NCBI GenBank assembly: GCA_015231305.1 | Contig: JADGBW010000004.1 | Coordinates: 1,314 to 65,313 of the forward strand | From: Magnetococcales bacterium | GTDB lineage: Bacteria > Pseudomonadota > Magnetococcia > Magnetococcales > JADFYX01 | Length of the DNA: 64,000 bases | Direction: 5' to 3' | Shown: one piece after another, positions 7,498-54,111 of the stretch | Numbering within the stretch: the stretch's first letter is position 1 | Layout: each line of letters opens with the position of its first letter | Made by a program: the position numbers and the translations under genes | Notes under the pieces: model-generated | What the model was told of the DNA's origin: nothing | What the model saw: only the letters and a program-made list of their open reading frames with translations | The model's database searches: none

Positions 7498-10400
7498 TTA
7501 AACCTCTTGTTTAGGCTCATCCCTAACAATTATTTTGTCGGAATCTTCAATTAAATCCAATGGGGCGTTAATTCCAGATGGCCCTCTTTCTCCATTTAGA
7601 TAAGCCATTGTATTCTCTAAAAAGTTATTGGTTTTAAAAATTTGCCCTTCCAATATTCTTAAAGAGTCAACTTTTCCTGTTAAAATAATCTCCTTCAATG
7701 TTGTAAGAGACATAAGTTGGGAACGACCAGTCTCTAAAAACATTGGGACAGATTGCAAAAATAGATTGCGATCTTGAATAAAGTTTAACTTTTCTTGAGT
7801 ATCTTTTTTAGGATTTTGAAGCTCAGCATTTAGCCTGCCTTCTTGAATATATATATTAGCGATAGATTTAAAAGATTGCGAAATCATCACCTTGGTTTTC
7901 TCTATTGTTTTATCCATAAAAGTTAATAAAAATACCTTAGACTCGATATCTTTCTTTATGGTTAGCATATCTTTTTCAAGCTTTGTGGCTATTTGCAATA
8001 TAGAAAAGTCGTGGTTGCTATCATCCATACTTAATTTGGTGAGAAGTAGGTTTACCTTGCTTTCATTGTTATCATCGACATCCATTAGGTCTAGTCTGTT
8101 ACTGCCCCACAAACTAATAATAAAACTATCTAAAGATGATAGGTCTCGTTGAAGAATGTTTAGTCCTACTGCCTCTTCAATTATCTCACGATGTATAAAT
8201 TTATCAAAAATAGATGCAATAGGTCGCAGTGTGTCAGTGCGGATTTTGGTAAGAATAGATACAGTCTGTTTCCTTTCAAAAGATAACCTTCTTACAATAT
8301 CCAGTGTTACCCGAAGCTTATCTGCCAAGAGATCAGCTTTTCTTTCAAGTATTGATGCGTCACTTTCTTTAGTTAACAATACTGCCGGTATTTCGATAAT
8401 AGATGAGTTGCCAATGATGTTATTAAAAAGAGCATTATCAATACGCAAACCTTGACCAGATGACATACCCAAAACTGTTAATAACTCTCTTTCAAATAAT
8501 AGACACTCATCATGGTTTTTTTGTATTTTCAAAACCCGTTTAAGCTCTTGATGCTGTGGTATATCATCCAAAACATTTAAAAGTGGGTTTAATATCTCTT
8601 TCTTGATTTTTGGTAGCTTTTCGCTAAGCAAGCTGGTTAATAATGGTCGGTATGGTGTAAGTGAGTCTATGTAAAGATGAGATTTTTTCTGCAAAACTGC
8701 CTGATCTACCATCCAGTTATTACGAGTTATAGAAAAGTTAAAATCAGAACGGGCAATAGGCCGTGAAAATAGATTGTAGACAAGATCAGATATCCACCTA
8801 TTTTTTACTTTGCGTCCGAATATCCCACCCCCAGAATGGAGAATTATCAAGACATTATGATGTAACTTCATATTACGAGATTGCGTCGCAAACTCAGGAT
8901 ACATTTCATATAGTTCATCAATTATATTAGCAATATATTCTATTTCTAACTGGAACTGATCCTCATTTTTACTCATATGGCTGCTGATTTTTTTATGTCT
9001 TGTCTCAAAGTGGTCTTGACTAATGGAAAACGGCTGGAACAGTTCACCATATAGACGATTGAGTAGCGGAGGAAGAAGTGATTCTGGATCGGCAAGTATT
9101 TTTCGGGTCATGGACTGCCGAGCATTATAGACCTCTGCATAGCGTATTCTGGTTGTAGAAAAGAGGCCAAAAAACCAAAAGCGGAATTTTTCTCCAGCGG
9201 TCATACGTGAGTGATCTTTAACAAATGGAGCAAGGCTTTCTAGGTATTGATGATAGACCCAGTGCAGAACAGGAGTTCTTGGGCAGGAAAGATGTGGAAT
9301 AGTCGAGCGAATATCTGGACGAGCTAAAAATGAGCGAATACGCTGTATATACTCATCTTCCCATGTTTGAAAACGTTTGATGTTCTCTTGCAAGAAATGC
9401 TGGTCACGTCGCCCCCAACGGGCAACCATTGTGCTGTAGAAAATTGGGTCGGAAAGATCCATAAACACAGCGATAAATAAAATCCAAAAAAGAATAGATG
9501 CGCCAACTGCTGCGCCGTACCTCTCTAAAAGAAGTGATTTTAACTCCATAACACTGCGACGTTCTGCCATGGGAATTTCGCTCTGGTTGAGCTGATCAAT
9601 GGCTTCAACACGGGGAATTTCAATTTTAACATCAATTGTATATTCAGTGTTACTAGGTATGCCTACTTTATCAACCTCTCTTAAAAAATTGATATGGGAC
9701 TCTGCTAAACGGTTGATAGCGTTGGCAGCTGTACCAAACTCACCTTTGTTTTTCTCCATCAAAGCAACTACTTCTTGCACGCTCTGGTTAACATGATAGG
9801 CCTCTAAGTTAAACAGAGCCGTTATTTCATCTATGGAGTAAGATTGCAGGGTCATTTTGTCTGCTAATGCGTCCATGCGTTTATTAACAGCACCATTCAT
9901 TTTGGAATATTGGCCCTGATAAACCCTTAGGATTTTGTTTAATTTATCTTCAAGTGAGATGGTTAAATCCAGGTCAGATTTTTGCAACATTCTATCAAGT
10001 TTTTTATTAAACTTAGAGTTGCCAATTGCCCGGACAACATCATGTTTTCCAGGCTTGTAACCACCATGAATTATATAGTATTTAGACCAATAGCGTGGTC
10101 CTTTACTGGCGATACCACTAGATGCTACCCCCATCATTTCATCTTCTACAACTTGGTCAAACTGTTTGGTGCTAGTTGCAATTTTCTTCTCCAACAAACC
10201 TTTTAGGTCTTGTAGAGAGTCTGGGTTATCCGGGTCAATATCTTTTGCATCACCCAAAGCCCTGCCGACTCTTTCTTGGATAAGCTCTAACTGATAGGCA
10301 AGATCTTGTGTTTTAGAAAAAAGCAGGACAATGCCGTCATAGTTGGTCCATATAGAACCCATGGTAAAAAATAGGGAGAGTATCATCCAGCGCGGAAAGC

Positions 10401-11202
10401 GTTTAAAGGCATCTAAAAAGCCTTGGAACACTTTTCCAGTTTCTGCCACGCCCTGAAAAAGACGGTCTTTGAAGTCTAAAATTATGGAAGATAGCACAAC
10501 GCCAAAGGTTAAAGTTAATATTAGGCGTATATTTTCATGTTGAGCACCCAATAGAAAATCACCAAATATTGATACAGCAATATCGTGTTGTACAAGATCA
10601 TTCACACCCTTGGCGGTGGTTAAGGTAGAACCGATAAATAGTAGAAGCCCCAAGATAATTTTACCTATGGAGAGAAAGGAGCCAAAGGTTTCTAATATTT
10701 TATCCTCAAGGCGTATCATAGAGCCTTCCCGGCCCCATAAATATCTTAAGGATCTAGACACTTTCATTGCTTGAGGTAAGTTTTCCCCGGCCTCTTTTTG
10801 GCTTGCTGCAAATGCATTTTGTATTGCGGATACGTTTAGCTTATATATCAACGCTGTTAGTTCGTAAAATGGATTTTCCGATAACATGGCCTCACTACCT
10901 TGAGCAAGACCTTTTTGAAATATTTGAAATTTTTGTGTTGTTGGGGGGGTGCTTTGAGTAACTTCACTTTTTGCTTCAACCAGTAGTGCTTGGCGAAGTC
11001 TCTCGGCCGCTTTTGTTACTTTGCTTAGCTGGTCGGGATCGGCATAATCAAGTAGTTGTTTTTTGTTTTGTTCGGTTACCTGCGCGGTTTTGGTATTGGC
11101 AACCATATCAGGAAAAAATGAAAATGGTTCATCTGGCTCAAGACTACCACTAAAACATTTTTCGCTTAGACGACCATAATGTATAAAAAAAGAGTTTTCC
11201 AT
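7498..11202 (-). CDS. large hypothetical membrane protein with long helical / coiled-coil regions
   Basis: This is an uninterrupted 1234-aa ORF. Hydrophobic helices include FGSFLSIGKIILGLLLFIGSTLTTA, ILTLTFGVVLSSIILDF, RWMILSLFFTMGSIWTNYDGIVLLF and GAAVGASILFWILFIAVFMDL. I saw no Walker A, nuclease, protease or kinase motif. Confidence 0.7.
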   Translation of the reverse strand: MENSFFIHYGRLSEKCFSGSLEPDEPFSFFPDMVANTKTAQVTEQNKKQLLDYADPDQLSKVTKAAERLRQALLVEAKSEVTQSTPPTTQKFQIFQKGLAQGSEAMLSENPFYELTALIYKLNVSAIQNAFAASQKEAGENLPQAMKVSRSLRYLWGREGSMIRLEDKILETFGSFLSIGKIILGLLLFIGSTLTTAKGVNDLVQHDIAVSIFGDFLLGAQHENIRLILTLTFGVVLSSIILDFKDRLFQGVAETGKVFQGFLDAFKRFPRWMILSLFFTMGSIWTNYDGIVLLFSKTQDLAYQLELIQERVGRALGDAKDIDPDNPDSLQDLKGLLEKKIATSTKQFDQVVEDEMMGVASSGIASKGPRYWSKYYIIHGGYKPGKHDVVRAIGNSKFNKKLDRMLQKSDLDLTISLEDKLNKILRVYQGQYSKMNGAVNKRMDALADKMTLQSYSIDEITALFNLEAYHVNQSVQEVVALMEKNKGEFGTAANAINRLAESHINFLREVDKVGIPSNTEYTIDVKIEIPRVEAIDQLNQSEIPMAERRSVMELKSLLLERYGAAVGASILFWILFIAVFMDLSDPIFYSTMVARWGRRDQHFLQENIKRFQTWEDEYIQRIRSFLARPDIRSTIPHLSCPRTPVLHWVYHQYLESLAPFVKDHSRMTAGEKFRFWFFGLFSTTRIRYAEVYNARQSMTRKILADPESLLPPLLNRLYGELFQPFSISQDHFETRHKKISSHMSKNEDQFQLEIEYIANIIDELYEMYPEFATQSRNMKLHHNVLIILHSGGGIFGRKVKNRWISDLVYNLFSRPIARSDFNFSITRNNWMVDQAVLQKKSHLYIDSLTPYRPLLTSLLSEKLPKIKKEILNPLLNVLDDIPQHQELKRVLKIQKNHDECLLFERELLTVLGMSSGQGLRIDNALFNNIIGNSSIIEIPAVLLTKESDASILERKADLLADKLRVTLDIVRRLSFERKQTVSILTKIRTDTLRPIASIFDKFIHREIIEEAVGLNILQRDLSSLDSFIISLWGSNRLDLMDVDDNNESKVNLLLTKLSMDDSNHDFSILQIATKLEKDMLTIKKDIESKVFLLTFMDKTIEKTKVMISQSFKSIANIYIQEGRLNAELQNPKKDTQEKLNFIQDRNLFLQSVPMFLETGRSQLMSLTTLKEIILTGKVDSLRILEGQIFKTNNFLENTMAYLNGERGPSGINAPLDLIEDSDKIIVRDEPKQEV

Positions 11203-18855: not shown

Positions 18856-19914
18856 ATGACCACCCCTAAACTTTCAATAATCATTCCTGTCTTAAACGAA
18901 GCAGCTAGTTTACCGACTTTAATTCAGCAGCTTCAACAACAGACAGATTGCCAACTGGAAATTATAGTTGTTGACGGCGGCTCTCAAGATCAAACCCAAA
19001 GTGTTGTCAAAAATTTGGGTGTGGTTTTTGTCACATCAAAGCCTGGTAGGGGTGTACAGATGAACACAGGAGCAAGAGTAGCTAAAGCCCCTATGTTGCT
19101 GTTTCTCCATGCTGATTCAACACTGACAAATTCTGAATTATTAAAAAATGCCATCACTACCTGGAATAAAAATAGGCAAACCTTGGGCCATGATCGCATC
19201 GGTGGTCATTTTAGTCTGAAATTTACCCAGCAACCTGCTAATCGTAAATGGGTTTTTAAATTTTATGAGGCAAAAACATCTCTTAATCGCTCTATGTGCA
19301 CCAATGGAGATCAGGGGTTTTTGTTAAAGCGCGAATTTTTTTGGCAGCTTGGTGGGTTTTCCCAAGAGTTACCATTTTTAGAAGATCAAATATTAGCTAG
19401 TCAGATATATGATAAAGGGGTATGGATAACTCTACCTGGATCATTAACCACCTCTGCTCGCCGTTTTAAACAAGAGGGTCTGGGGCGACGTATGATATTA
19501 AACGCTATTATAATGGCTTTTCATTATACTGGTTTTAAGCAGTTTTTTGCTCGTGCTCCAGAGGTTTATCGTCAGCAGGACACAGCAAAGCCGTTGCAAA
19601 TAACCCCTTTTTTTAACCTTATAAAAACTCTTAACTCTGAAGCTGGCTGGCAGGTAAGTTTTAAACGTTGGCGTTATATAGGTGGTTTTGTCCGTGAGGC
19701 AGCCTGGCAGATATTTTTTGTTTTAGATGTTATTGCTGCACAACTTTTTAACTGGCAAAAAAAACCATTTGTCGCCTTACACGACAAGGTATTTAAACCA
19801 TTAACAAATTTTTTACTATTTGATGTTTTAACTGCCATTTTAACGTGGATTTGGTTTACATTAACGGGGTACTATTTTGCTATTAGTGAAGCTAACTTTA
19901 AACGGACCAGTTAA
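18856..19914 (+). CDS. glycosyltransferase family 2 with C-terminal membrane helices
   Basis: 352 aa. It reads LSIIIPVLNE...EIIVVDGGSQDQT...LFLHADS. The C-terminal ~100 aa contain two hydrophobic helices. Its TAA stop overlaps the ATG of the next gene by one nucleotide (TAATG at 19912-19916). Confidence 0.85.
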   Translation: MTTPKLSIIIPVLNEAASLPTLIQQLQQQTDCQLEIIVVDGGSQDQTQSVVKNLGVVFVTSKPGRGVQMNTGARVAKAPMLLFLHADSTLTNSELLKNAITTWNKNRQTLGHDRIGGHFSLKFTQQPANRKWVFKFYEAKTSLNRSMCTNGDQGFLLKREFFWQLGGFSQELPFLEDQILASQIYDKGVWITLPGSLTTSARRFKQEGLGRRMILNAIIMAFHYTGFKQFFARAPEVYRQQDTAKPLQITPFFNLIKTLNSEAGWQVSFKRWRYIGGFVREAAWQIFFVLDVIAAQLFNWQKKPFVALHDKVFKPLTNFLLFDVLTAILTWIWFTLTGYYFAISEANFKRTS

Positions 19915-21575
19915 TGAGCCAGACCACAAAAGATAATTTATATATAGAATATTTAGCTTGGCAGCAACGAAGGCTAAAAGACGCTATTGTATATTTTAAA
20001 AACAGCAATCAAGATCAATTTGGTCTGTTACGTGACCTTTTTCTTTACAACTGGTTGCAACGTGAAGTTAAGCCCCCCCATAAAAAAGCGGTTTTAGCTC
20101 TTGCTTTTCCTAAGCTATCAGAAGAGTTGACAAATTTAATGTTAACTACTTGGGATAATTCAAAATATCTACAGGGGCTTATCGCCTATTGGCATTCACA
20201 AAAAAGTAGTTTGCAACGCAAAGAGAGTATAGAAAATCTCTTGGCTAAACATGGTGGTGATATCTCTTTAGCGGTAGACGATATTTTGGCCACTTGGCAA
20301 AAGTTGGCTCTTTTTAAGCAACCCCATAAAGAGGCTTTTCGTGAAATTTTAGAGAAACAAAAAAAACGTGGGGCAGAGGTAGGGGGTGATATTGATAAAG
20401 AGAGAGCTGCAATTATAGATAGATTGCCAGACAGCTTTAATTGGGATTCTGAATTTCAAAAAGTTGGTATTATTCCTCACATGGGCTGCGCTAAAAATTG
20501 TCGTCACTGTATGTTTGTCTGGCGGCAACCCATTAAAAACAAGGTTGATGCTAAACTACTGTTTAAGCCGATAAACAGTGCTACTAAATCTGTACTTTTT
20601 ACAGGGGGAGACCTTGATAGGCATATGCCAGAGTTTTATCGGGCTATTGCTTCTATGGAAACAGTTTCGGTATTTGCAATTTTATTAAATGGAGCTTTTG
20701 CAACAACACTTAGTGAGACAGAGGCACGTTTTTTAGAAATTAATAAGGCACTTGAAAAACGAAAGAAAAATTTTCAACTTGCCAAGGTTATTTTGCAAAT
20801 TAGTTTTGATGAGTACCACCAGGAGATTTTAAGCGATGAAAAAGGTGAATTAAAAGAGCGGATTTCCGTAGTTAATATTGCTAATATAGTAACTACATCT
20901 CTTAAATATCCGCAAATTCAGTTGGTGTTGTTACATAAACAAAATCGGCTAAATTTCTCTGAAAACCTCATTAAAGTAGGGTTGTTTGATCGCCTTAATA
21001 AAACTCTTACAGCTATGGGGTATCCTGTTGTTAACATAGATTGGCATACATCACCTCGTAAAAAGGCTGACCCTGCCAACCCAACCCATAAAGGGGGGGT
21101 TATTAGAGACGTTATATTTAGCCTGCAAGGTTTTTCTGATCAGCCTATCCATATGATGAGCTCCACCATAGACGCATATGGCAGGGCGGCACTTTTAGAC
21201 CCAAGTGAATATATTAATGAACGAGATTATCTAGACTATATTTTAGCAAACGGCCCGCCAGATAGTGAGCAGTTTGATATAGACCCCATGGTTTGGTATG
21301 ACGGTTCTGTGACGCTTTTCTCTGCTGCTCATGTTTGGGTTGGTAATATAATTGAGGAGGAGGGGGTGTTTGCTCGTTATAAAAAAGATCCTCTTCTTCA
21401 CGCTTTACGACAGTTTGATAAAAGCTTGCTTGGGTACTATGCAGAAGCTGATAACGATTTAGAAACATTGATAAAAAGCGCAACTGGCCCACACCACCTC
21501 TTTCATCTTTTAACCCAGTCTGCTGCAATGCGTTTACACATGACTAAACGTTTGGTTGAGAACAGAAATTTATAA
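19914..21575 (+). CDS. radical SAM-like protein with unrecognised N- and C-terminal extensions
   Basis: 553 aa. It has one CX3CX2C cluster, MGCAKNCRHCMF, with Cys codons at 20487, 20499 and 20508. VLFTGGDL (a GGEP-like SAM motif) follows about 30 aa later, then ILLNG and QISFDEYH. About 185 aa precede the cluster. There is no Cys-rich SPASM region. Confidence 0.65.
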   Translation: MSQTTKDNLYIEYLAWQQRRLKDAIVYFKNSNQDQFGLLRDLFLYNWLQREVKPPHKKAVLALAFPKLSEELTNLMLTTWDNSKYLQGLIAYWHSQKSSLQRKESIENLLAKHGGDISLAVDDILATWQKLALFKQPHKEAFREILEKQKKRGAEVGGDIDKERAAIIDRLPDSFNWDSEFQKVGIIPHMGCAKNCRHCMFVWRQPIKNKVDAKLLFKPINSATKSVLFTGGDLDRHMPEFYRAIASMETVSVFAILLNGAFATTLSETEARFLEINKALEKRKKNFQLAKVILQISFDEYHQEILSDEKGELKERISVVNIANIVTTSLKYPQIQLVLLHKQNRLNFSENLIKVGLFDRLNKTLTAMGYPVVNIDWHTSPRKKADPANPTHKGGVIRDVIFSLQGFSDQPIHMMSSTIDAYGRAALLDPSEYINERDYLDYILANGPPDSEQFDIDPMVWYDGSVTLFSAAHVWVGNIIEEEGVFARYKKDPLLHALRQFDKSLLGYYAEADNDLETLIKSATGPHHLFHLLTQSAAMRLHMTKRLVENRNL

Positions 21576-21672
21576 CATTATTAGGCTCGGCACAAAATTT
21601 GCGGTTGCGATGATTGTTGGGATTAACTCTCAATAACCATTTTGCAGATAAATTTGTGACAGGAGCTTAGAA

Positions 21673-21861
21673 ATGTGGGAACATTCCGATTTAACTCAAC
21701 TAAAGCTGGATCTCTTAAAGGGAATGCCACGGGTATATAACAAACTGGTTGTGCGTTTAAACCGTGAGGGTTTAGTTGAAGCAGATATTCATGATGCCAA
21801 AAAACGTAAACAGTTAGATGGAATTCTAGACTACTATTATCGCAAATTCATGCCCGCATAG
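21673..21861 (+). CDS. hypothetical small helical protein (62 aa)
   Basis: A strong AGGAG lies 8 nt upstream of the ATG. The stop is 17 nt before the next gene. I recognised no motif. Confidence 0.5.
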   Translation: MWEHSDLTQLKLDLLKGMPRVYNKLVVRLNREGLVEADIHDAKKRKQLDGILDYYYRKFMPA

Positions 21862-21878
21862 AAATTGAGTAACTCTTA

Positions 21879-23090
21879 ATGACTGGAACAGATAGCCGCG
21901 TTAACCGCAAACTGCTTTTGGAGTACGACCAAAAGAAAAAATTGTATGACGATTTTTTGGTTATGATCTTGCGTTTTTTAGGTGAGTTCATTAAAGAGAA
22001 CTCCCTTGGGGTTTTCTCTTTTGAAGGCGAGGTTATGAGTTCTCAGGAGCTTGAAACTAGATTAAAAGCTGGTTTGGTGGCTTCGAATATTGAAGATATA
22101 AAAGATTTTGTAGAGATTGAAATTCTTACATATTTTGAGGATAATGTTAGTGATGTAGCTAATGTTTTAAATGCTGAATTTAAAATATTAGAAGAATCAA
22201 TTAACCAAGAAAAAGGGTTAGATCCTCAACGTTTTGGCTATCAAGCACCCTCATATTTAATCCGCATGATGGACAGCCGTTTGGAGTGGATTGAATATCG
22301 CTGTTTTACAGATTGTAAGGCTAAGGTTAAGATATCATCGCTGTTGCAAAATACCTGGGAAAAAATTCAAAACAGGCTGAATTTTGATGAATCATCAGTG
22401 CCTTACCTCCAGCAAAGACCAACACAGCGTATTGTTGGACTTTTTGAGCTTGCCGACCGTGAGTTAAACCAGCTTAAAAACTCTCTACCCAAAATTAAAG
22501 ATCAAACTAAAGATATAGATTTAGATATAGATTTAGTTGATACATTTATAGCTCCTTCACCTGTTTCTGCCCCTAAACAAGAGGAGCCAGAAAAGAGCAA
22601 GCTTGAGGTTCCTTACGAAATACCAAAAGCGGTTAAAGTTGCTAAGAAGGGTGGTTTAGAAATATCTCCAAGAAACAGCCTTAGTGATATGGAAAAAGCC
22701 AAGCCAGAGATGGTTTTAACTTCTGAATCTGTAGGCAAGTTGATTCTTGATGATCCTGATGTACGTGGGGTTGATAGGTTGATATCCGATGGATTTTCTA
22801 CTCGTTTGAAGTTTGATTCTCTATTTTTAGAAAATCTTTGTGAGGTAGCAAACAGTTTTCATATTCCCAGTAAAAATGTCTTGTTGAAATATATCACTCA
22901 ACAAGAACAATTAATATTTAAACATACAGAAGAACTTATTAATAAACCAGCGGGGGATGCTCCTTTTACCATTCCGCGGGGTATATCTATTTTAATGGCT
23001 TTCCACGTTTTAGCAAACGATGGTGAAGATAGAGAGGTGGTTGAAAAAATTGCCGAAATTATTCAATCAATTAACGATGCTTACCTTTAG
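21879..23090 (+). CDS. RelA/SpoT-like (alarmone synthetase fold) domain protein, catalytic motifs degenerate; paralog 1
   Basis: 403 aa. The order and spacing of the synthetase motifs are kept but the residues are replaced. FEGEVMSSQELETRLK replaces RxKxxxSxxxK. DFVEIEILTYFEDNV replaces DxxGxR. FGYQAPSYLIRM replaces GYRSxH. AKVKISSLLQNTWEKIQNRLNF replaces EIQIRTxxQxxWAxxxHxxxYK. A low-complexity linker and a ~130-aa C-terminal domain shared with paralog 2 follow. Confidence 0.6.
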   Translation: MTGTDSRVNRKLLLEYDQKKKLYDDFLVMILRFLGEFIKENSLGVFSFEGEVMSSQELETRLKAGLVASNIEDIKDFVEIEILTYFEDNVSDVANVLNAEFKILEESINQEKGLDPQRFGYQAPSYLIRMMDSRLEWIEYRCFTDCKAKVKISSLLQNTWEKIQNRLNFDESSVPYLQQRPTQRIVGLFELADRELNQLKNSLPKIKDQTKDIDLDIDLVDTFIAPSPVSAPKQEEPEKSKLEVPYEIPKAVKVAKKGGLEISPRNSLSDMEKAKPEMVLTSESVGKLILDDPDVRGVDRLISDGFSTRLKFDSLFLENLCEVANSFHIPSKNVLLKYITQQEQLIFKHTEELINKPAGDAPFTIPRGISILMAFHVLANDGEDREVVEKIAEIIQSINDAYL

Positions 23091-23108
23091 AGAACAGATA
23101 TTTATGCC

Positions 23109-24311
23109 ATGACTAATACCAAGGCGACTGTTGGCATTTTTAAAGAACCAAGATCTCATTATCTTGAATTTATAGATATTTTCAAGTCACTTGTGCATGT
23201 GTTAATTGCACGAGAGGGTAAAATAGGCTTGGTTGAGGTGAGCGGACATCTGAAATCGGTTGAAGATATGGGTAAAGCGGTAGCTGTTCTGCCTGACGGA
23301 ACCTACCCGATTATGTCTGATATTCATAATTCCATGGCACTGCGTGTGGTGACATTTTATGAAAAAGATGTAGCCCCTGTGTTAAAAAAATTAACCAACT
23401 CGTTTGGGGTTGTAGAGGTAAATATACAAGAGAAAGACGACCCAGAGGTGTTTGGTTATCAGGGATCTTCATTAATATTAAAACTAGGTGAAGACCGTCT
23501 TAAATTAGATGAATATCAACGTTTTGCTGATTTACAAATAGAGGTGCAGGTATTTTCTCTATTTCAAGATACCTGGTCTAAAATTGCTAGTCATATTGGC
23601 TACCCAGAGGATAAATTTCCCAAAGAACAACTACGCGAGTATAACCAACTTGCCTATATGGTAGAGCTGGCAGATTCTGAGCTTAACAACATTAAAAAAT
23701 CGATATTTACCTACGATTGGAGCGAAGATAATACAGCTGCACCTGATAAAAAGAAGCCTGCCACAAAACAAAAGGGCAACAAAAAGGGAGTAGCAGGAGA
23801 GGCTAAAGAGACAAATAAAGACAGTACATCTCAATCTGGACCTCTTATTCCTCAAATCAACCTGCCACCTACTAATAAAATAGATAAAATTAAATTGGCA
23901 AAAGTAGGGGACTCTCTAAATTCTGAGACCATAGATAATTTAATTTTGGCTAATGATTTAGTACGAAATTTTGATAAGCTGATTTCAGATACGTATAATA
24001 CGAGGTTGATGTATCAAGGCAAAAACTTAGAGCCATTACTTTCGGCATTAATAGAGCTTGATATCTTTAAAACAATTGCAGATATAGAGGCCGAACTATT
24101 TAAAAAACGCCACTCTATTTTATCCTTAGGGATACAGATTTATGGCCCACCAAAAGATAAAAATTATGAACATATACCAAAAGGTATTTCACTGTTTTTG
24201 CTAGCATATTATACAATTTCAGATTCAAGAGATATAAAGCTGGTAAGAAAGTTTTTAGATAAATATTCTTTTGATCAAGAGTTGATCAATAAAAAAAGTG
24301 TTTTGTGGTAG
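23109..24311 (+). CDS. RelA/SpoT-like (alarmone synthetase fold) domain protein, partly degenerate; paralog 2
   Basis: 400 aa. The motifs are VSGHLKSVEDMGKA, NSMALRVVTFYEKDV, FGYQGSSLILKL and LQIEVQVFSLFQDTWSKIASHIGYPEDK. The E-x-Q, W and H of the EIQIRT..W...H motif are kept, but R/T and the GYRSxH Arg/His are lost. It has a Lys-rich linker. The C-terminal domain aligns with paralog 1 (LIL.D..VR..D.LISD...TRL, IP.GIS). Confidence 0.65.
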   Translation: MTNTKATVGIFKEPRSHYLEFIDIFKSLVHVLIAREGKIGLVEVSGHLKSVEDMGKAVAVLPDGTYPIMSDIHNSMALRVVTFYEKDVAPVLKKLTNSFGVVEVNIQEKDDPEVFGYQGSSLILKLGEDRLKLDEYQRFADLQIEVQVFSLFQDTWSKIASHIGYPEDKFPKEQLREYNQLAYMVELADSELNNIKKSIFTYDWSEDNTAAPDKKKPATKQKGNKKGVAGEAKETNKDSTSQSGPLIPQINLPPTNKIDKIKLAKVGDSLNSETIDNLILANDLVRNFDKLISDTYNTRLMYQGKNLEPLLSALIELDIFKTIADIEAELFKKRHSILSLGIQIYGPPKDKNYEHIPKGISLFLLAYYTISDSRDIKLVRKFLDKYSFDQELINKKSVLW

Positions 24312-24361
24312 AAAAAAAAGCTTTTAACTATCATGTGACAAGTGAGATTTTCTCCCTTATA

Positions 24362-24389
24362 GGTTTGGGCAAAGCCCAAGGTTTTGCTT
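24362..24389. repeat. REP-like repeat, family B, copy 2
   Basis: ggtttgggcaaagcccaaggttttgctt is the exact reverse complement of 616-643. It lies 3' of the gene ending at 24311. Confidence 0.8.
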
Positions 24390-24517
24390 TTAAGACTTTA
24401 TTATAAAAAAGCGAGGGGGTTTAGGAAACTGCAAACCCTTCAAAGGATATACCATAAATATCAAGAGTATAAGAAGATATAAAGCAACCAAAAAAAAATA
24501 AACTAACAGCAAAAACC

Positions 24518-24542
24518 TGTAGGAGCGAGCTTGCTCGCGAAT
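24518..24542. repeat. REP-like palindromic element, family C
   Basis: tgtaggagcgagcttgctcgcgaat contains the perfect hairpin gcgagc-tt-gctcgc. A diverged inverted copy lies at 32662-32687. Confidence 0.7.
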
Positions 24543-24771
24543 TTAAAGGCTACCCAAATAAAACAAAACCCAAACAGATAAAAGATAACAAATGACCAAA
24601 TTCAAAAAACTATAGTAGATACAAAAAAACTGTACTTAAAAAAAGCATGTCATATCCGCGCAAGCGCAAATCTAAGGCGACATTGTTGAATTTACAGCAT
24701 TTCCCCCTACACTGTAATAATGCCGACTTGGATTAGAATTTCTTTTTTCAGATAAAAATCACAATATAAAA

Positions 24772-25230
24772 TTACCGCCCATAACCAGCACACCAACCAC
24801 CACTCTTAACACCCCCGTCATATCCAACTGCCAACCCGCTATTGTTTAACAAATAACTAACATCTACCCCATCCGCCACAACATAGGCCACAATTCTAAA
24901 ATATTTCCCCCGACCAACTTCTTTAAGAGTAATTCTTCCAGCCCTATCCAACAACTGCCCAAGCATAACTTTTGCCTGTTTAGCCAACTTAATTTCTGCC
25001 AAACATTCACCTCTAATTTCTGGAGTATCAATTCCACGAATCCGCACAGAAATGTTTTGCCCAATCAACGGGTGAACTCCAGGTAAATTAAACCGCACAG
25101 TATCGCCATCATAGTTACCAAGGTATACGACACCCTCTATATCTCCATAGCTTTTCTTATCTCCAAAAGCAGGCCCTAAAAGAGCAAATAAAATAAAAAG
25201 TCCAACAAGAAAAATATATTTAGGGTGCAT
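24772..25230 (-). CDS. secreted thermonuclease (staphylococcal nuclease / SNase) family protein
   Basis: 152 aa. It has an N-terminal signal peptide (IFLVGLFILFALLGPAFG), a DGDT motif, and RIRGIDTPE in the position of the SNase RLxGIDxPE motif. Confidence 0.85.
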   Translation of the reverse strand: MHPKYIFLVGLFILFALLGPAFGDKKSYGDIEGVVYLGNYDGDTVRFNLPGVHPLIGQNISVRIRGIDTPEIRGECLAEIKLAKQAKVMLGQLLDRAGRITLKEVGRGKYFRIVAYVVADGVDVSYLLNNSGLAVGYDGGVKSGGWCAGYGR

Positions 25231-26016
25231 AGGACAGTACTACACATAGTGTAGATAGATTAAGAGATAGGGGGTAGTTTTGGGAAAAACAACTAAATAG
25301 AAAACTCATTGTCACTAAAAGCCGAAATAGCAAAATACGGCCTACACCAGTTTGGCATATCCGGCTCTGCCTCTTGTAGAGAAAAAAAGTAGACCAAACC
25401 TGATTCCAACACCAATTTATGTAATTTTAATTTAGCAAATGTAAATTAATACATAAGAAATAAAAATTGCATTATAAAACCGTAGACAAATAAATGGATA
25501 AGGGCCGTGAGTGTAGAAAAATAACCACCTTATTTGTGTTTACCATTTAATATCAAGGTGTTGTAAAAACCCAAAACGTCCATTTTGAACGGTTTGGCCT
25601 ACTTGAATATGGAACTATAAGAGGCTATTTTCCCAGCAAACTAACTGGTGGATTATTTTCGCACGTATAAAAACAGGAAAGATAAAAAAAAATCCCTAAT
25701 TTTTTGGTGTACGAACGGGTTTTGTTGTAACCTTCAGATATGCCATGACTGCTCCTTCTCGTTTAAGGACGTTTTGGTTAGGCATAGTGGGTGTTCCACC
25801 ACTCACTATGCTGCTACCCATCATTTATATCTTATTCCAGGTCCATTAAGCAAAGAAAAAACAAAAAAAGTATCGCAAAGCTTAACCTGTATCATTTAAA
25901 CCTGCTAGACATAATCAAAGATTGATCCTTATTGTAAAAATATCCAAAAATACCAACAATTTTAAGCACTATTTTTAATTTTAACTCTGTAACAATAAAA
26001 AAAATTATTCTAGGTA

Positions 26017-26238
26017 TTGATAATAGTAGTTATAGCTTCTTTTATTTTATTTGACGGTAAATATACGATTGCTAAAGATCCAAAGGATAGAAGTGTGATA
26101 GCCTTCAACAAAATTAACTCATTATCAAGAAAACCTGATACAAAGTATGTGAAGCATCTTGAGGGCTATTTTCCTGGTACTATAATCAGTATTAAATTTT
26201 CCCTTAGTGAAACTCAAATTGAAGGGAAGGAGCTATGA
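26017..26238 (+). CDS. small ORF (73 aa, TTG start), translationally coupled to the DUF4325-like gene; possibly a 3' remnant of a larger gene
   Basis: Its stop overlaps the next ATG (ATGA at 26235-26238). It has no SD and no ATG, and an in-frame stop lies only 2 codons upstream. The ending ...GYFPGTIISIKFSL resembles the last strand of GHKL/HATPase-type proteins, which often precede DUF4325 genes. That resemblance is weak. Confidence 0.3.
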   Translation: MIIVVIASFILFDGKYTIAKDPKDRSVIAFNKINSLSRKPDTKYVKHLEGYFPGTIISIKFSLSETQIEGKEL

Positions 26239-26564
26239 CTACTCAAACAGAACCAATTACACTTGATTTTTCAAAACAAGGCGGACCAGTTTTTGTTGGA
26301 AGAGCACAAGGTGAAAAAGCTAGACAAAACTTCAGGCTCGATATCTTGGATGATTCTGAAGATATCATAAAGGTTGTCATCCCTGAGGGGACATACTCTG
26401 TGAATAGCTCCTTTTTTCTAGGTCTTTTTACAAAAAGTGTTTTAAAGACTGGAAGCAAGAAAAAGTTTCTTGCTAAATTTAATTTTGTTTGTGAAAGTTT
26501 CCTCTTGGAGACTATTGATACATACATTGATAGAGCTTTAAGAGAAAAAAGTGATCTCTTCTAA
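26235..26564 (+). CDS. STAS-like DUF4325 family protein
   Basis: 109 aa. ...VVIPEGTYSVNSSFFLGLFTKSV...FNFVCESFLLETIDTYIDRAL fits, from memory, the pattern of the STAS-like DUF4325 family (vsSSFl.eLf ... i...I.ra). Confidence 0.55.
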   Translation: MTTQTEPITLDFSKQGGPVFVGRAQGEKARQNFRLDILDDSEDIIKVVIPEGTYSVNSSFFLGLFTKSVLKTGSKKKFLAKFNFVCESFLLETIDTYIDRALREKSDLF

Positions 26565-26576
26565 AAAGATCATGTA

Positions 26577-27140
26577 ATGGAGTATTTAATAAGAATTATT
26601 AGTGAAAACCCTGAATATGCTGTACTTTTTTCAGCTTTACTAGCTGTTATTAGTATACTTATGCATTCGGCTAGATTTATTTTTTCTAGAACTGATAGAG
26701 GAATTGATCGTAAGATTTCAGTTGATGAATTTTGGTTTCTGGATATTCTTTTACATCCCTGTATCACACCGCTAAATGATTTTTTCTCAAAAAGAAGGGA
26801 AGCTGTTTCTACTTTATCTATAGAACTCATAGATAAATCTCCTACAGATCAAATAATAGCTGTGCAATCTTACCTTAAAGATTTCAATAAGGACTGTGTT
26901 GTAGAGCAAGTCCCAGGATTTCAAAGTTTTAATTTAATTGATCTAGAAGTACTGCCAAAAATAGAAATGGAACTCGAAAAGCTTTCTGATTCAATCAATA
27001 AATCTAGTAGTGAAGTAGTTGATGTCGATTTTATTATGATTAAAAGTGTCACTGCATCCCAGCTTAAAAATCTTTCAACATGCCATGTAGAAATTTTACG
27101 TATTCTATATGAAAAACATTCAGCAATTGCTAAAATTTAA
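26577..27140 (+). CDS. hypothetical protein with one N-terminal TM helix
   Basis: 187 aa. It contains the helix AVLFSALLAVISILM and no recognisable motif. It sits in the AT-richer islet, 12 nt after the DUF4325 gene. Confidence 0.5.
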   Translation: MEYLIRIISENPEYAVLFSALLAVISILMHSARFIFSRTDRGIDRKISVDEFWFLDILLHPCITPLNDFFSKRREAVSTLSIELIDKSPTDQIIAVQSYLKDFNKDCVVEQVPGFQSFNLIDLEVLPKIEMELEKLSDSINKSSSEVVDVDFIMIKSVTASQLKNLSTCHVEILRILYEKHSAIAKI

Positions 27141-27363
27141 TAGAAAGAAGATCTGTTAAACCTGATGAGGGTATTTAGACATAAATAATTTGATCAAGGG
27201 ACAGTTTTATAGAATCTATAATAGTAGAGAGGTCAGGGGGCAATATATTAGTAGTTCGCAAAATTCTACAACAATATCATGGGCCTATAATCTACCTTCT
27301 AATCATGATTTGGGGATGGTATATAGTGGAACTAAGTTAAAGGTGTATTAAGTTATGTTTATT

Positions 27364-29415
27364 TCAGGTTTTGCTTATTGATTCTTGGATTTTAGATTGC
27401 CACATCTGTTGGTAATTATTTTCTAAATCAGCAACAAACCCTGCTATATCACAAAGTGGGGAGTTTTTAACAGAACTATGTAGAGATAGGCGTTGTTCTG
27501 TATTTCTAACACCTTTTTTTGCTAAATTTACAGCAATGTTTAAATATTGTTCTTTAGTTGTTGCAACCCATTCACTTTTACCAATTACTGTTAATAGGCT
27601 TACTCCTTGTCTTTCAATCATTCTACTGCCTGATAGGGTAACAACCGGAACGCCCATCCATAAAGCATCAGCTGTTGTTATTCCTCCTGTACGTGGAAAA
27701 GGATCAAGAGCAACATCTATTAGGCCATACTCTTCCATATAGTTAGATGATGCTGGTTTTAAAATTAGGCGGTCTTTTTGTATTCCACATTTTAAAAAAA
27801 GCTCATAAATATTGGTTTTAGTAAAAGGGTTAACTAGTTGGCTCGATTTAAGAAAAAGCTTTGAATTAGGGACTTCAGATAAAATCTGGCTCCAAAGCAT
27901 GGCAACAGATTCATTTATTTTAGATATATGGTTAAAAGAGCCAAAGACGACATTTTTGTTAGATATCCGATCATTCTGCAATATTTCTGGCTTGTAGCTT
28001 GGCTGATATGATACCCAACATTTGGGTTGATGGATAATAGTTTCAACAGCTTGTTCTGGGGTATCTTCAGGAGTTAAAACAGGGTCTGTAATCCAATAAT
28101 CCATAGATTGCAACCCAGTGGTAGTACAATAACCTAAATATGTAGCTTGAATTGGTGCGGGTTTATAGGTAAAAACCTTCAGCCTATTACCATTTGTGTG
28201 ACCAGTTAAGTCAATAATAATATCTATTCCATCATCATAAATTTGTTTTGCCATCTGTTTATCATTCAAGCTTACAGTATCGCGCCAAACATCTGCATAA
28301 GACTTAATTTGAGTTGTTACTGTATCGGGACTGATAACGTTAGAATAACAATATACCTTAATTTTATTACGGTTATGGGTTTGAATAATACCAGAAATAA
28401 AGTTGCTTACAGGATGTCTTATAAAGTCTGGTGATACATAGCCAACTTTTAATATGTCATTTGTTTTTTTGTTAATAATATGTTTGTAGCTATTTTTCTC
28501 TCCTAAATACCCATGTAGTTTATCAAATTGTTTGTGATATTCTAATGTCTGCTGGTGAGTGTAGAGAACAAAATAACTAAGTACATATAGAAACCTGCTG
28601 TAAATTTTTTCACAATCTGGTTTTAATAAAATAGCTTTTTGTATATTGGCTACCCCTTCGTGAGGTCTGCCTTGCTCTTGTAGTACATTGCCAAGGTTAG
28701 AATAAGCGTCAGAAAGTTCAGGGTTTATTATTATTGCTTTTTGATAACTCACTATTGCTTCATCATGTTTGGCTTGTTCTTGTAGAGCATAACCAAGATT
28801 AGAGTAAGCTTGGGCAAAGTCTGGTTTTATGGATATTGCTTTTTGGTAGTTGGTAACGGCTTTATCAAGTTTGCCTTGCAACTGTAAGACAATACCAAGG
28901 TTAGAATAAGCATCTACATAATCTGGTCTATATGATATTGCTTTTTGAAGAATTATAATTGCTTCATCCAGTTTTCCCTGTTTATGCAGGGCAATACCAA
29001 GATTGGATAGAGCTTCTACATAGTCAGGTCTAACAGATAATGCTTTTTGGTAACTGGCAATAGCTTCATCCAGTTGGTTTTGTTCTAAAAGGGCATTACC
29101 AAGATTAAAATAAGCTTCTACATTATCGGGTTTAATTAATATTGCTTTTTTATAGTTTGAAATTGCTTCTTCAAGTTTGCCTTGGGTTTGCAAAGCTAAA
29201 CCCATGTTAGAAAAAGCTACTGTACTTTCATGGTCTATTTCTAAATTCTTTTTATACCAAAAAATAGCTTCATCTAGTTGTCCCGATTGGTGATATAAAA
29301 TTCCTTTTTGCAACGTTTCTTGAGCTTCTGCAAGGTTAAAATTGGTGGTTGGTATTTGTTGCTGCACATTTTTTTTAGAAAGCTTTTTTTGCTGCCGCCT
29401 TTCTTCTGAGTTCAT
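27364..29415 (-). CDS. TPR-repeat protein with C-terminal SPINDLY/O-GlcNAc-transferase-like (GT41) domain
   Basis: 683 aa. It has about 7 consecutive 34-aa TPR units (...A..YQKAI...PD...AYSNLG..L..QGK.DEAI...), then a ~400-aa glycosyltransferase-like C-terminal half. Confidence 0.9.
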   Translation of the reverse strand: MNSEERRQQKKLSKKNVQQQIPTTNFNLAEAQETLQKGILYHQSGQLDEAIFWYKKNLEIDHESTVAFSNMGLALQTQGKLEEAISNYKKAILIKPDNVEAYFNLGNALLEQNQLDEAIASYQKALSVRPDYVEALSNLGIALHKQGKLDEAIIILQKAISYRPDYVDAYSNLGIVLQLQGKLDKAVTNYQKAISIKPDFAQAYSNLGYALQEQAKHDEAIVSYQKAIIINPELSDAYSNLGNVLQEQGRPHEGVANIQKAILLKPDCEKIYSRFLYVLSYFVLYTHQQTLEYHKQFDKLHGYLGEKNSYKHIINKKTNDILKVGYVSPDFIRHPVSNFISGIIQTHNRNKIKVYCYSNVISPDTVTTQIKSYADVWRDTVSLNDKQMAKQIYDDGIDIIIDLTGHTNGNRLKVFTYKPAPIQATYLGYCTTTGLQSMDYWITDPVLTPEDTPEQAVETIIHQPKCWVSYQPSYKPEILQNDRISNKNVVFGSFNHISKINESVAMLWSQILSEVPNSKLFLKSSQLVNPFTKTNIYELFLKCGIQKDRLILKPASSNYMEEYGLIDVALDPFPRTGGITTADALWMGVPVVTLSGSRMIERQGVSLLTVIGKSEWVATTKEQYLNIAVNLAKKGVRNTEQRLSLHSSVKNSPLCDIAGFVADLENNYQQMWQSKIQESISKT

Positions 29416-53748: not shown

Positions 53749-54111
53749 CTATTTATCTATGAGAAGGTCTTCTTTTTTTCCGCCATTGTTAAAAAATTGT
53801 TGATAGATATTGGGGCATCTACCACGACCAGACCATTTTACCCCTTTATATTCATATTTTGGCTTAACCTTGGGTGAGCTAGGTTTTTTAGTTGAAGGAA
53901 AAGTGCCTTCAAAAAAATCGGATAAATTCAGGCCTAAATTATTGGCCTTTCTATTTAGCCTAAGCTTATAGTCTTGTTTATATTGAGTTTGACGCTGCTT
54001 TATTAAAACTTCTAATTTCTTCTTAATAGCAATAAGAGTATCAAGCTCTAGAGCTTCCAGCTCTTCGTGATTTACGTTGCCAATTTTAGTTTTTAGATGT
54101 TGCATAGCCAC
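53749..54111 (-). CDS. H-NS family nucleoid-associated DNA-binding protein
   Basis: 120 aa. It has an N-terminal coiled coil (LEALELDTLIAIKKKLEVLIKQRQ) and a Lys-rich linker. The C-terminal KYEYKGVKWSGRGRCPNIY matches the H-NS DNA-binding loop motif (TWSGRGRxP). Confidence 0.7.
   Translation of the reverse strand: MAMQHLKTKIGNVNHEELEALELDTLIAIKKKLEVLIKQRQTQYKQDYKLRLNRKANNLGLNLSDFFEGTFPSTKKPSSPKVKPKYEYKGVKWSGRGRCPNIYQQFFNNGGKKEDLLIDK

Follow-up and report, generated by a model that had tools for sequence, protein, structure and literature searches.

Two tandem proteins of the small alarmone synthetase fold with degenerate catalytic motifs, and a 62-residue neighbor, in an uncultured Magnetococcales genome

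A three-gene locus in a metagenome-assembled genome (MAG) of an uncultured member of the Magnetococcales is described here. It lies in a 64-kb stretch of contig JADGBW010000004.1, referred to below as the window, and consists of three plus-strand open reading frames (ORFs) at positions 21673-24311, which encode proteins of 62, 403, and 400 amino acids (aa) and are separated by gaps of 17 and 18 nt. In the ORF list, the genes and gaps are exactly where the first-pass annotation of this DNA had placed them. We call the two larger genes paralog 1 and paralog 2, in their order on the DNA; their products are identical to HQL71_01130 and HQL71_01135. The coordinates of the genes, of their parts, and of the surrounding features are collected in Table 1. 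As far as sequence and models can tell, the pair is a duplicated, degenerate, and domesticated offshoot of a large, apparently unstudied subfamily of small alarmone synthetases (SAS) whose own motifs are intact.

The two large genes are recognizable, from the alignment of their products, as tandem paralogs with one three-part layout. BLASTP aligns the proteins over about 374 aa with 28% identity (E 6e-34), and the alignment spans the N-terminal domain, an ELAD(R/S)ELN helix, and the C-terminal domain. The N-domains of both have the RelQ/RelP-type SAS (RelA/SpoT SYNTH) fold. The Pfam evidence taken alone is marginal, since the scores against PF04607 (RelA_SpoT), 26.6 bits for paralog 2 and 15.2 bits for paralog 1, are both below the gathering threshold of 27. 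A profile made from 23 family members finds RelQ and RelP in the PDB at E 4e-8 to 1e-5, and the phage protein family phrog_9640 matches paralog 1 with 116 bits (E 4e-33) and paralog 2 with 93 bits (E 3e-26). In the AlphaFold2 (AF2) model of paralog 2, the N-domain has a predicted local distance difference test (pLDDT) score of about 80-92, and its fold superposes on solved SAS structures: Foldseek matches the model to 2be3, 6fgk, 6ex0, and 5dec at E 6e-8 to 1e-6, with template-modeling (TM) scores, normalized to the target, of 0.7-0.79, and more weakly to CapRel (7ztb). The superposition concerns paralog 2, the fold of paralog 1 being taken from the profile searches. The RelA/SpoT fold of the N-domains and the tandem paralogy, both read from the DNA in the first-pass annotation, thus stand, the one by the PF04607, PDB profile, Foldseek, and phrog_9640 searches and the other by the BLASTP alignment.

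The N- and C-domains are joined by an extended linker of about 65 aa, rich in Lys, Pro, and Ala, that is common to the Magnetococcales group, whereas the canonical relatives described below have a short helical linker. In paralog 2, it is predicted to be disordered, with AF2 pLDDT <50 at residues 208-248. The C-domain is mildly acidic in paralog 1 and neutral in paralog 2. When the C-domain of paralog 2 is modeled alone, AF2 gives a compact bundle of 7-8 helices with a pLDDT of 84.7 and a predicted TM score (pTM) of 0.82. Composition, predicted disorder, and this model agree with the earlier description of a Lys/Pro/Glu-rich linker followed by a helical domain. The structure prediction and Foldseek search that had been proposed for the C-domain found no relative, as there was no significant match in the PDB (best E 0.68) and nothing in BFVD; Pfam gave no match either, and PDB sequence and profile matches were at noise level. 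The C-domain had been called novel, and this holds in that no annotation or structural match could be attached to it. It does not hold in the sense of a domain peculiar to the pair, since hhalign aligns the Magnetococcales C-domain with the C-region of a SAS subfamily of about 360 aa (99.3%, E 1.4e-20, 130 columns), with which it has the motifs lD..Ia ... (R/K)G(I/V)S.f.L in common. By these alignments, the C-domain, though unannotated, is not unique to the locus; it characterizes a very large group of SAS proteins whose catalytic motifs are intact.

When the family profile was run in an exhaustive HMMER search, 6577 cluster representatives were recovered at E<=1e-3, 1394 of them at E<=1e-30. 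After the Magnetococcales sequences themselves, the top matches are proteins of about 350-370 aa with E values of 1e-70 to 1e-53, which match over stretches of both the N- and the C-domain. One of them, WP_135327382 of Halobacillus salinus, annotated as a '(p)ppGpp synthetase', matches phrog_9640 from end to end (E 1e-95). In an alignment of 60 diverse representatives, the catalytic and substrate-binding residues are invariant or nearly so; in the numbering of P0047, these residues are R48, K50, D73, G76, R78, G118, Y119, E147, Q149, H163, and Y167. The window paralogs have in common with this subfamily an R-L-E-x-x-E-Y-x-x-F insert between motifs 3 and 4 and the ELAD.E(F/L)N helix. Homologous in both their N- and C-domains, the ~360-aa phrog_9640 proteins are the true parent of the window paralogs, which belong to the subfamily as a derived offshoot and not as typical members. 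Canonical members have intact catalytic residues and a short linker and are single-copy, mobile or prophage-borne genes scattered over phyla, whereas the window genes are duplicated, degenerate, linker-expanded, chromosomal, syntenic, and vertically inherited.

Canonical members occupy at least 569 loci among the GTDB species representatives, in Firmicutes, all proteobacterial classes, Bacteroidota, Actinobacteria, Cyanobacteria, Saccharibacteria, and others, and no conserved same-strand neighbor was found around the loci examined. On viral contigs of IMG/VR, there are at least 83 loci, many of them full-length, with P2-like baseplate, tail, integrase, and lysis genes as recurrent neighbors, and the Halobacillus copy sits among PBSX-like prophage genes. 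GenBank phage records, unlike IMG/VR, hold few full-length relatives. The PADLOC candidate PDC-S33 matches canonical members in the N-domain only. No experimental work on the ~360-aa subfamily was found in the literature searched. We are thus dealing with thousands of members, many of them prophage-borne, that have intact motifs and a C-domain without a structural relative and are apparently uncharacterized; it is plausible that they make up a new class of fused or partner-regulated anti-phage toxic SAS (toxSAS) proteins. The taxonomic range would fit the names fpRel and/or gRel of the Atkinson nomenclature, which is a guess on our part. At one locus, from a Eubacterium MAG (L074, 6050-6550), a canonical member is followed by a 166-aa ORF whose N-terminus looks, by eye, like that of an HD-domain small alarmone hydrolase. 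Small alarmone hydrolases are the classic universal toxSAS antitoxins.

How far the window proteins have departed from this parent was determined with a residue table of 21 motif positions that are near-invariant among the 60 active-looking canonical relatives. Paralog 1 retains 6 of the 21 (D76, G120, Y121, S154, Q157, and W160), and paralog 2 retains 10 (K49, R79, G116, Y117, E145, Q147, S150, Q153, W156, and Y165). Motif 1 (R-x-K-x3-S-x3-K), which binds the ATP phosphates, has its Arg and first Lys in 60/60 canonical relatives, its Ser in 50/60, and its last Lys in 59/60; the corresponding residues are E51, M53, E57, and R61 in paralog 1 and H47, K49, D53, and A57 in paralog 2. Motif 2 (D-x-x-G-x-R) carries the Mg2+-binding Asp, and its Asp, Gly, and Arg are each found in 60/60 relatives; it reads D76-E79-E81 in paralog 1 and N74-A77-R79 in paralog 2. 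For motif 4 (E-x-Q-x-R-(S/T), then H...YK), the relatives have Glu, Gln, and His in 60/60 and Arg in 59/60. Paralog 1 has K149-K151-S153 followed by N165, F169, and D170, and paralog 2, where the motif is partly retained, has E145-Q147-F149 followed by S161, Y165, and P166. The Gly-Tyr of the G-loop, which serves in stacking of the acceptor base, is retained in both (G120-Y121 and G116-Y117); it is invariant across the Magnetococcales and canonical sequences, with the exception of L009_g2, which has Thr at the Tyr position. Both paralogs thus depart from an active SAS in motifs 1, 2, and 4 and agree with it at the G-loop Gly-Tyr. The motif strings given in the first-pass annotation are all correct when set column by column against the 60 relatives, and its statement that most catalytic or substrate-binding residues are replaced is borne out by the counts above.

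In a neighbor-joining tree made without bootstrap, the Magnetococcales sequences group apart from the canonical ones and split into a paralog 1-type and a paralog 2-type clade with mirrored branching orders. These mirrored clades therefore argue for one ancient tandem duplication followed by vertical co-inheritance, of which they are the expected result, and both ~400-aa proteins appear to descend from a single, Magnetococcales-specific tandem duplication of a RelQ/RelP-like SAS. Near the base of the tree are two singletons, P0014 and P0031, with almost fully canonical motifs. P0014, from Magnetococcus sp. WYHC-3, has a Ppx/GppA gene about 1 kb away (L001, 6137-9362), and P0031 directly follows ntrY-ntrX (L173, 316-5227). 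The neighbors of the singletons give hints that the ancestral Magnetococcales copy may have been a working alarmone synthetase. Deeper lineages combine a dead paralog 1-type gene with a near-canonical paralog 2-type gene (P0029/P0030 in HQL52, L007_g2a, and L009_g2), and in L004/L006_g2, D73 and E147 were lost independently. Paralog 1 has lost the ATP-binding Arg/Lys in every lineage examined and the catalytic Glu in most. In the clade of the window, the paralog 2 signatures H-x-K, N..A.R, and E-x-Q-x-F/Y have become fixed. Two loci of a distant lineage (L007, 8001-10526, and L008, 5368-7893) have the pair directly after fliE-fliF-fliG-fliH-fliI and before a sulfotransferase gene; there, the paralog 2-type gene is split into ORFs of 292 and 118 aa, by a frameshift or an assembly error. 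A link with flagella or flagellin glycosylation, suggested by fliE-I in L007/L008 and by tetratricopeptide repeat (TPR) proteins in L004-6/L009, was considered and set aside, as the contexts are heterogeneous across lineages and those TPR proteins resemble the TPR-GT41 protein of the window only in generic TPR repeats.

The two former active sites have fared differently. Among ten orthologs of paralog 1, pairwise identity at the 16 former catalytic positions averages 0.37, against 0.64 for the N-domain, and in 10,000 random sets of columns, none was as low (P<1e-4); the constraint on the former active site of paralog 1 is therefore relaxed. Among ten orthologs of paralog 2, the former catalytic positions have an identity of 0.73, against a domain mean of 0.69, with H47, K49, R79, G119, E145, Q147, and Y165 invariant and N74 present in 9/10 (His in the remaining one). 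The pocket of paralog 2 is thus remodeled but maintained, while the former active site of paralog 1 drifts. The earlier proposal that the enzyme is inactivated in both copies is right insofar as the canonical catalytic set is lost from both, and has to be amended in that the loss is unequal, with a relaxed site in paralog 1 and a conserved pocket in paralog 2.

The 62-aa protein is basic (pI 9.35), has no Cys, is conserved over its whole length, and looks helical. Its gene has orthologs directly 5′ of the pair in L002 (HQL72) and L003 (HQL67), with 73% and 79% identity, respectively, and conservation of the trio as a unit, raised as a question in the first-pass annotation, is thereby seen in both loci. 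A tblastn search of all other Magnetococcales loci fetched found nothing, and no small ORF fits into the space ahead of the pair in L004-L009 and L012. The 62-aa gene has therefore joined the pair only in the clade of the window, where it is strictly linked to it; in this clade, paralog 2 is degenerate as well, and the gene is not seen beside the more active-looking paralog 2 genes elsewhere. No homologs of the protein were found in Pfam, NCBIfam, PADLOC, PHROG, the PDB, or a metagenome scan. Conservation of the nucleotide sequence begins at the ATG, with variation at third positions, and does not extend, in L002/L003, into the intergenic DNA before it.

In comparison with L002 (HQL72) and L003 (HQL67), paralog 1 has 45% and 42% identity and paralog 2 has 55% and 50%. 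The nonsynonymous divergence (dN) is 0.38-0.53 for paralog 1 and 0.34-0.42 for paralog 2, and the 62-aa gene, with dN 0.14-0.19, is the slowest-evolving gene at the locus; its ratio to synonymous divergence (dN/dS) is about 0.08-0.10 where dS is unsaturated. Across MAGs at 42-81% identity, dN/dS is well below 1 and the reading frames are intact; the three genes are real and under purifying selection. The order SLT - ftsY - (thioredoxin) - glycosyltransferase family 2 (GT2) - radical SAM (rSAM) - 62 aa - paralog 1 - paralog 2 is kept in L002 and L003, and the place beside SLT-ftsY is retained in MAGs down to about 50% identity. Within a Magnetococcales clade, the trio has thus been passed on vertically and in synteny, outside any defense island. 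PADLOC found no match for the trio, and the rest of the window is housekeeping in character (serA, a hybrid histidine kinase, an epimerase, a LysR regulator, RNase T, glutamate-cysteine ligase, and a K+ channel), which speaks against the defense-island setting that had been considered.

The known proteins closest to the window N-domains in both sequence and structure are RelQ and RelP (SAS1/SAS2) of the Firmicutes, which have Syn motifs 1-4 and the following helix in the same order. RelQ and RelP are homotetramers. They are active, single-domain proteins of about 210-230 aa, whereas the window proteins have lost most of the catalytic residues and carry, in addition, a linker of about 65 aa and a C-domain of about 135 aa. 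CapRel (CapRel-SJ46, PDB 7ZTB) resembles the window proteins in having, within one polypeptide, a SYNTH-type domain at the N-terminus and a regulatory domain at the C-terminus, and both CapRel and the parent subfamily of the window proteins are prophage-associated. The similarity is weak, however, and lies in the N-domain only (E 1e-6 to 1e-5), and Foldseek finds no structural match between CapRel and the window C-domain. CapRel is an active tRNA pyrophosphokinase, and the window proteins, unlike it, lack the catalytic set. Membership of the CapRel group is ruled out, as the profile of the canonical relatives matches CapRel (7ztb/9erv) in the N-domain only at E ~1e-6, against 3e-24 for RelQ/RelP, and the C-domain has no CapRel match. 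Type II toxSAS modules (FaRel2, PhRel2, and PhRel with their small antitoxins) resemble the window locus in that a gene of the SAS fold has a small ORF close beside it. Such modules have a catalytically competent SAS and a patchy, mobile, or defense-island distribution. In the window, the active site is absent, inheritance is vertical and syntenic, and the small ORF is missing from the relatives in which the enzyme looks active. The analogy with toxSAS and CapRel drawn in the first-pass annotation consequently fares poorly, given the weak, N-domain-only CapRel match, the lack of a C-domain or PADLOC match, and the syntenic housekeeping context.

The PANGU systems offer a mechanistic template for a SAS with a C-domain and a small partner. 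In PANGU type I, Pag1B (a GRel toxSAS) is described as having a SYNTH domain followed by a helical linker and, at the C-terminus, a domain that binds its partner; it forms a tetramer that is inactive until Pag1A, a separately encoded, basic, YejK-like nucleoid protein, binds to the C-domain (bioRxiv preprint 10.64898/2026.04.06.716658). The PANGU partner is a YejK/NdpA protein of 37 kDa, while that of the window is a 62-aa orphan; moreover, the window C-domains are mildly acidic (paralog 1) or neutral (paralog 2), and the window enzymes look inactive. There is no YejK/NdpA-like gene (~37 kDa) beside the trio, and no such gene recurs as a neighbor around 160 canonical loci. Membership of PANGU/GRel is thus unsupported, there being no YejK-like neighbor and no strongly acidic C-domain, with Pag1B compared by architecture only.

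The reading that we tentatively favor is that the two paralogs are a domesticated pair of pseudoenzymes which, with the 62-aa protein as a small partner, may act as a non-catalytic regulator or nucleotide sensor. The degenerate motifs, the pattern of constraint, and vertical inheritance make the pseudoenzyme pair, as already proposed at first annotation, the best supported of the readings considered. Since SAS enzymes are oligomeric (RelQ and RelP being homotetramers and Pag1B a tetramer), we propose by analogy that paralog 1 and paralog 2 would assemble into a hetero-oligomer. Paralog 1 would be a pure scaffold in it, and paralog 2 would keep a nucleotide-binding pocket without Mg2+-dependent pyrophosphate transfer. 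The 62-aa protein would join as a third subunit or serve as a modulator, possibly by binding to the C-domains. In the course of the lineage, the short linker was replaced by the disordered, Lys/Pro-rich stretch of about 65 aa. The complex would then be a housekeeping, non-catalytic sensor of nucleotides or alarmones, or an adaptor, and not a toxin. Several points weigh against this. Paralog 2 retains the catalytic Glu/Gln, the Lys of motif 1, the Arg of motif 2, and the Tyr of the G-loop; Asn can still ligate Mg2+ weakly; and paralog 2 could, by its residues, have residual or altered catalysis. Conservation of its pocket is equally expected of an enzyme with a new chemistry. In addition, the pair has varied neighbors in other lineages, where it follows fliI, TPR proteins, or lon, and these give no coherent functional clue.

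The main rival to a non-catalytic role is accordingly that of an enzyme, in which paralog 2 would still be a nucleotide pyrophosphokinase or carry out a related chemistry, paralog 1 would be its regulatory subunit, and the 62-aa protein an activator or inhibitor. We hold this to be possible, if rather unlikely. It would account for the retention by paralog 2 of K49, R79, G116-Y117, E145, Q147, and Y165, and for the substituted positions H47, N74, and G119 being fixed across the clade, under a constraint equal to the domain average. That sister lineages pair a near-canonical paralog 2-type protein with a dead paralog 1 tells us that a stage of 'enzyme plus pseudo-subunit' existed; the singleton relatives lie beside ntrYX and near Ppx/GppA, and the activation of Pag1B by Pag1A through its C-domain provides a precedent. 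On the other hand, five near-invariant positions are replaced together in paralog 2 (R48->H, D73->N, G76->A, R151->F, and H163->S), and a D-to-N change at the metal-binding Asp, which is a standard inactivating change in enzymes of the nucleotidyltransferase fold, is among them. The loss of D73 and E147 in L004/L006 also suggests that catalysis is dispensable for the role of the pair. A toxSAS toxin-antitoxin or anti-phage module, with the 62-aa protein as antitoxin, paralog 2 as toxin, and paralog 1 as decoy or sensor, seems very improbable to us. A small ORF does lie tightly 5′ of SAS-like genes, members of the parent subfamily are often found in prophages and at P2-like moron positions, one relative (L074) has a small-alarmone-hydrolase-like neighbor, and the fusion of a SYNTH domain with a C-domain recalls CapRel. 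The catalytic residues needed for toxSAS toxicity are nevertheless absent, PADLOC gives no match, and the locus, in its housekeeping context, is passed on vertically and in synteny among MAGs at about 45-55% identity and is neither patchy nor island-borne. Moreover, the 62-aa gene is confined to lineages whose paralog 2 looks inactive and is missing from those in which it still looks active, which is the opposite of what is expected of an antitoxin.

It is also very improbable that the trio serves the upstream GT2 and rSAM genes, with the 62-aa product as the substrate or carrier of a ribosomally synthesized and post-translationally modified peptide (RiPP)-like pathway and the paralogs as accessory proteins or scaffold. 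The genes are on one strand, with a gap of 97 nt after the rSAM gene, the order of the five genes is kept in L002 and L003, and the rSAM protein has a weak match to the YydG peptide-epimerase family. The GT2-rSAM module adjoins SLT-ftsY in L002, L003, and L011. In HQL52 (L011), however, the block SLT-ftsY-trx-GT2-rSAM is found at the same chromosomal site without the trio, and the pair of HQL52 is elsewhere, after lon on a different contig. Homologs of the rSAM protein outside the clade number more than 790, in taxa without the pair, and many of them are from sulfur-oxidizing Gammaproteobacteria. The trio was thus inserted beside an older, independent GT2-rSAM module, with which it may be co-transcribed while being inherited separately. 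The pair also occurs without GT2-rSAM in four other contexts, and the 62-aa protein is conserved throughout, lacks Cys, and looks helical and basic, not like a leader and core. Finally, the C-domains might be histone folds that form handshake heterodimers, with the Lys/Pro-rich linker as a histone-like tail. What speaks for this is that the family profile has weak matches, all of them to α1-L1-α2 of histone H3 (E 0.01-0.2, about 30-55 residues), and that LISDxYxTRLxF resembles EIAQDFKTDLRF by eye. The H3 matches amount, in effect, to one independent match at E ~0.01, the two H3-like motifs stand about 18 residues too far apart, and the C-domain model, a compact bundle with a pTM of 0.82, has no Foldseek match to any histone in the PDB or BFVD. 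We have rejected the histone fold as extremely improbable.

As to the DNA around the trio, the terminator-like hairpin 3′ of paralog 2 (Table 1) is probably, by its sequence pattern, the end of the transcription unit. A REP-like element had been reported immediately after the last gene; the nearest element is this hairpin, and the near-perfect palindrome that had been called REP-like is about 208 nt downstream. The palindrome may resemble the repetitive extragenic palindromic (REP) elements of the Pseudomonas type. It occurs as a single copy in the window, and its assignment to a REP family was set aside on that account. No Rfam families or riboswitches were found in the intergenic regions, and no tRNAs. 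A plasmid origin was rejected, as megablast gave no match. The DNA 3′ of paralog 2 (24312-29415) has a lower GC content (0.32-0.35) and differs between MAGs (L002 and L003), and it is thus a variable region.

Table 1. Positions in the window of the three genes, their domains, and surrounding features.
Feature	Position	Strand	Basis or remark
GT2 glycosyltransferase gene	18856-19914	+	Pfam GT2, E 4e-20
Gene for 553-aa radical-SAM-like protein with conserved CxxxCxxC	19914-21575	+	Overlaps GT2; Pfam Radical_SAM 14.7 bits, YydG 21 bits (weak)
AGGAG Shine-Dalgarno sequence, 7 nt 5′ of the ATG of the 62-aa gene	21661..21665	+	Read from sequence
62-aa gene	21673..21861	+	ORF list
Paralog 1 gene, 403 aa	21879-23090	+	ORF list
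Paralog 1 N-domain, aa 1-200	21879..22478	+	SAS fold, apparently dead active site; phrog_9640, Pfam, residue table
Paralog 1 linker, aa ~201-270	22479..22688	+	Lys/Pro/Glu-rich; gapped, poorly conserved alignment columns; composition
Paralog 1 C-domain, aa ~271-403 + stop	22689..23090	+	Helical, acidic (pI 4.8); aligns with paralog 2 C-domain
Paralog 2 gene, 400 aa	23109-24311	+	ORF list
Paralog 2 N-domain, aa 1-200	23109..23708	+	SAS fold, pocket remodeled but conserved; Pfam, PDB profile, AF2/Foldseek, phrog_9640
Paralog 2 linker, aa ~201-262	23709..23894	+	Lys/Pro-rich, basic (pI 9.6); AF2 disorder; composition
Paralog 2 C-domain, aa ~263-400 + stop	23895..24311	+	Helical; AF2, hhalign
Terminator-like hairpin TTTGGGCAAAGCCCAAG with T-rich tail	24364..24390	+	Consensus scan, pattern match only
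Near-perfect palindrome GTAGGAGCGAGCTTGCTCGCGAA	24519-24541		~208 nt 3′ of paralog 2 gene
SNase-like ORF, N-terminal hydrophobic stretch	24772-25230	-	
Three ORFs without assignment	26017-27140	+	
TPR + GT41 O-GlcNAc-transferase-like protein	27364-29415	-	

Farther away in the window, three observations may be recorded. An AT-rich stretch at 52.6-55.0 kb (GC 0.30-0.32), with small ORFs only, includes an ORF of 120 aa (53749-54111, minus strand) that ends in ...VKWSGRGRCPNIY..., by eye an H-NS-type DNA-binding motif; it may encode a xenogeneic silencer carried by an acquired island. A 1234-aa ORF (7498-11202, minus strand) has no Pfam match at E<=0.01. A 1422-aa protein (46735-51003, plus strand) has PPDK_N ATP-binding and phosphoenolpyruvate (PEP)-utilizer mobile domains only in its last ~450 residues, the N-terminal ~970 being without assignment.

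What, then, would the trio mean for the SAS family? To our knowledge, all SAS-fold proteins characterized so far are enzymes, being either alarmone synthetases or tRNA pyrophosphokinases. A tandem pair that is kept by selection without the catalytic set would show that the SAS fold has been recruited as a pseudoenzyme, in parallel with pseudokinases and pseudo-GTPases. It is tempting to go further and to suppose that, in these magnetotactic cocci, a phage-derived SAS was domesticated into a three-protein, non-enzymatic module that reads (p)ppGpp/(pp)pApp, or else that the pocket of paralog 2 performs a new chemistry, a proposal that we regard as unlikely, though not fanciful. If true, the nucleotide-reading module would be the first SAS-fold alarmone receptor. 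The lineages hold the intermediates of such a path, from active-looking singletons, through an enzyme with a dead partner, to two degenerate copies with a new small subunit, and these natural intermediates make the route from enzyme to pseudoenzyme directly testable.

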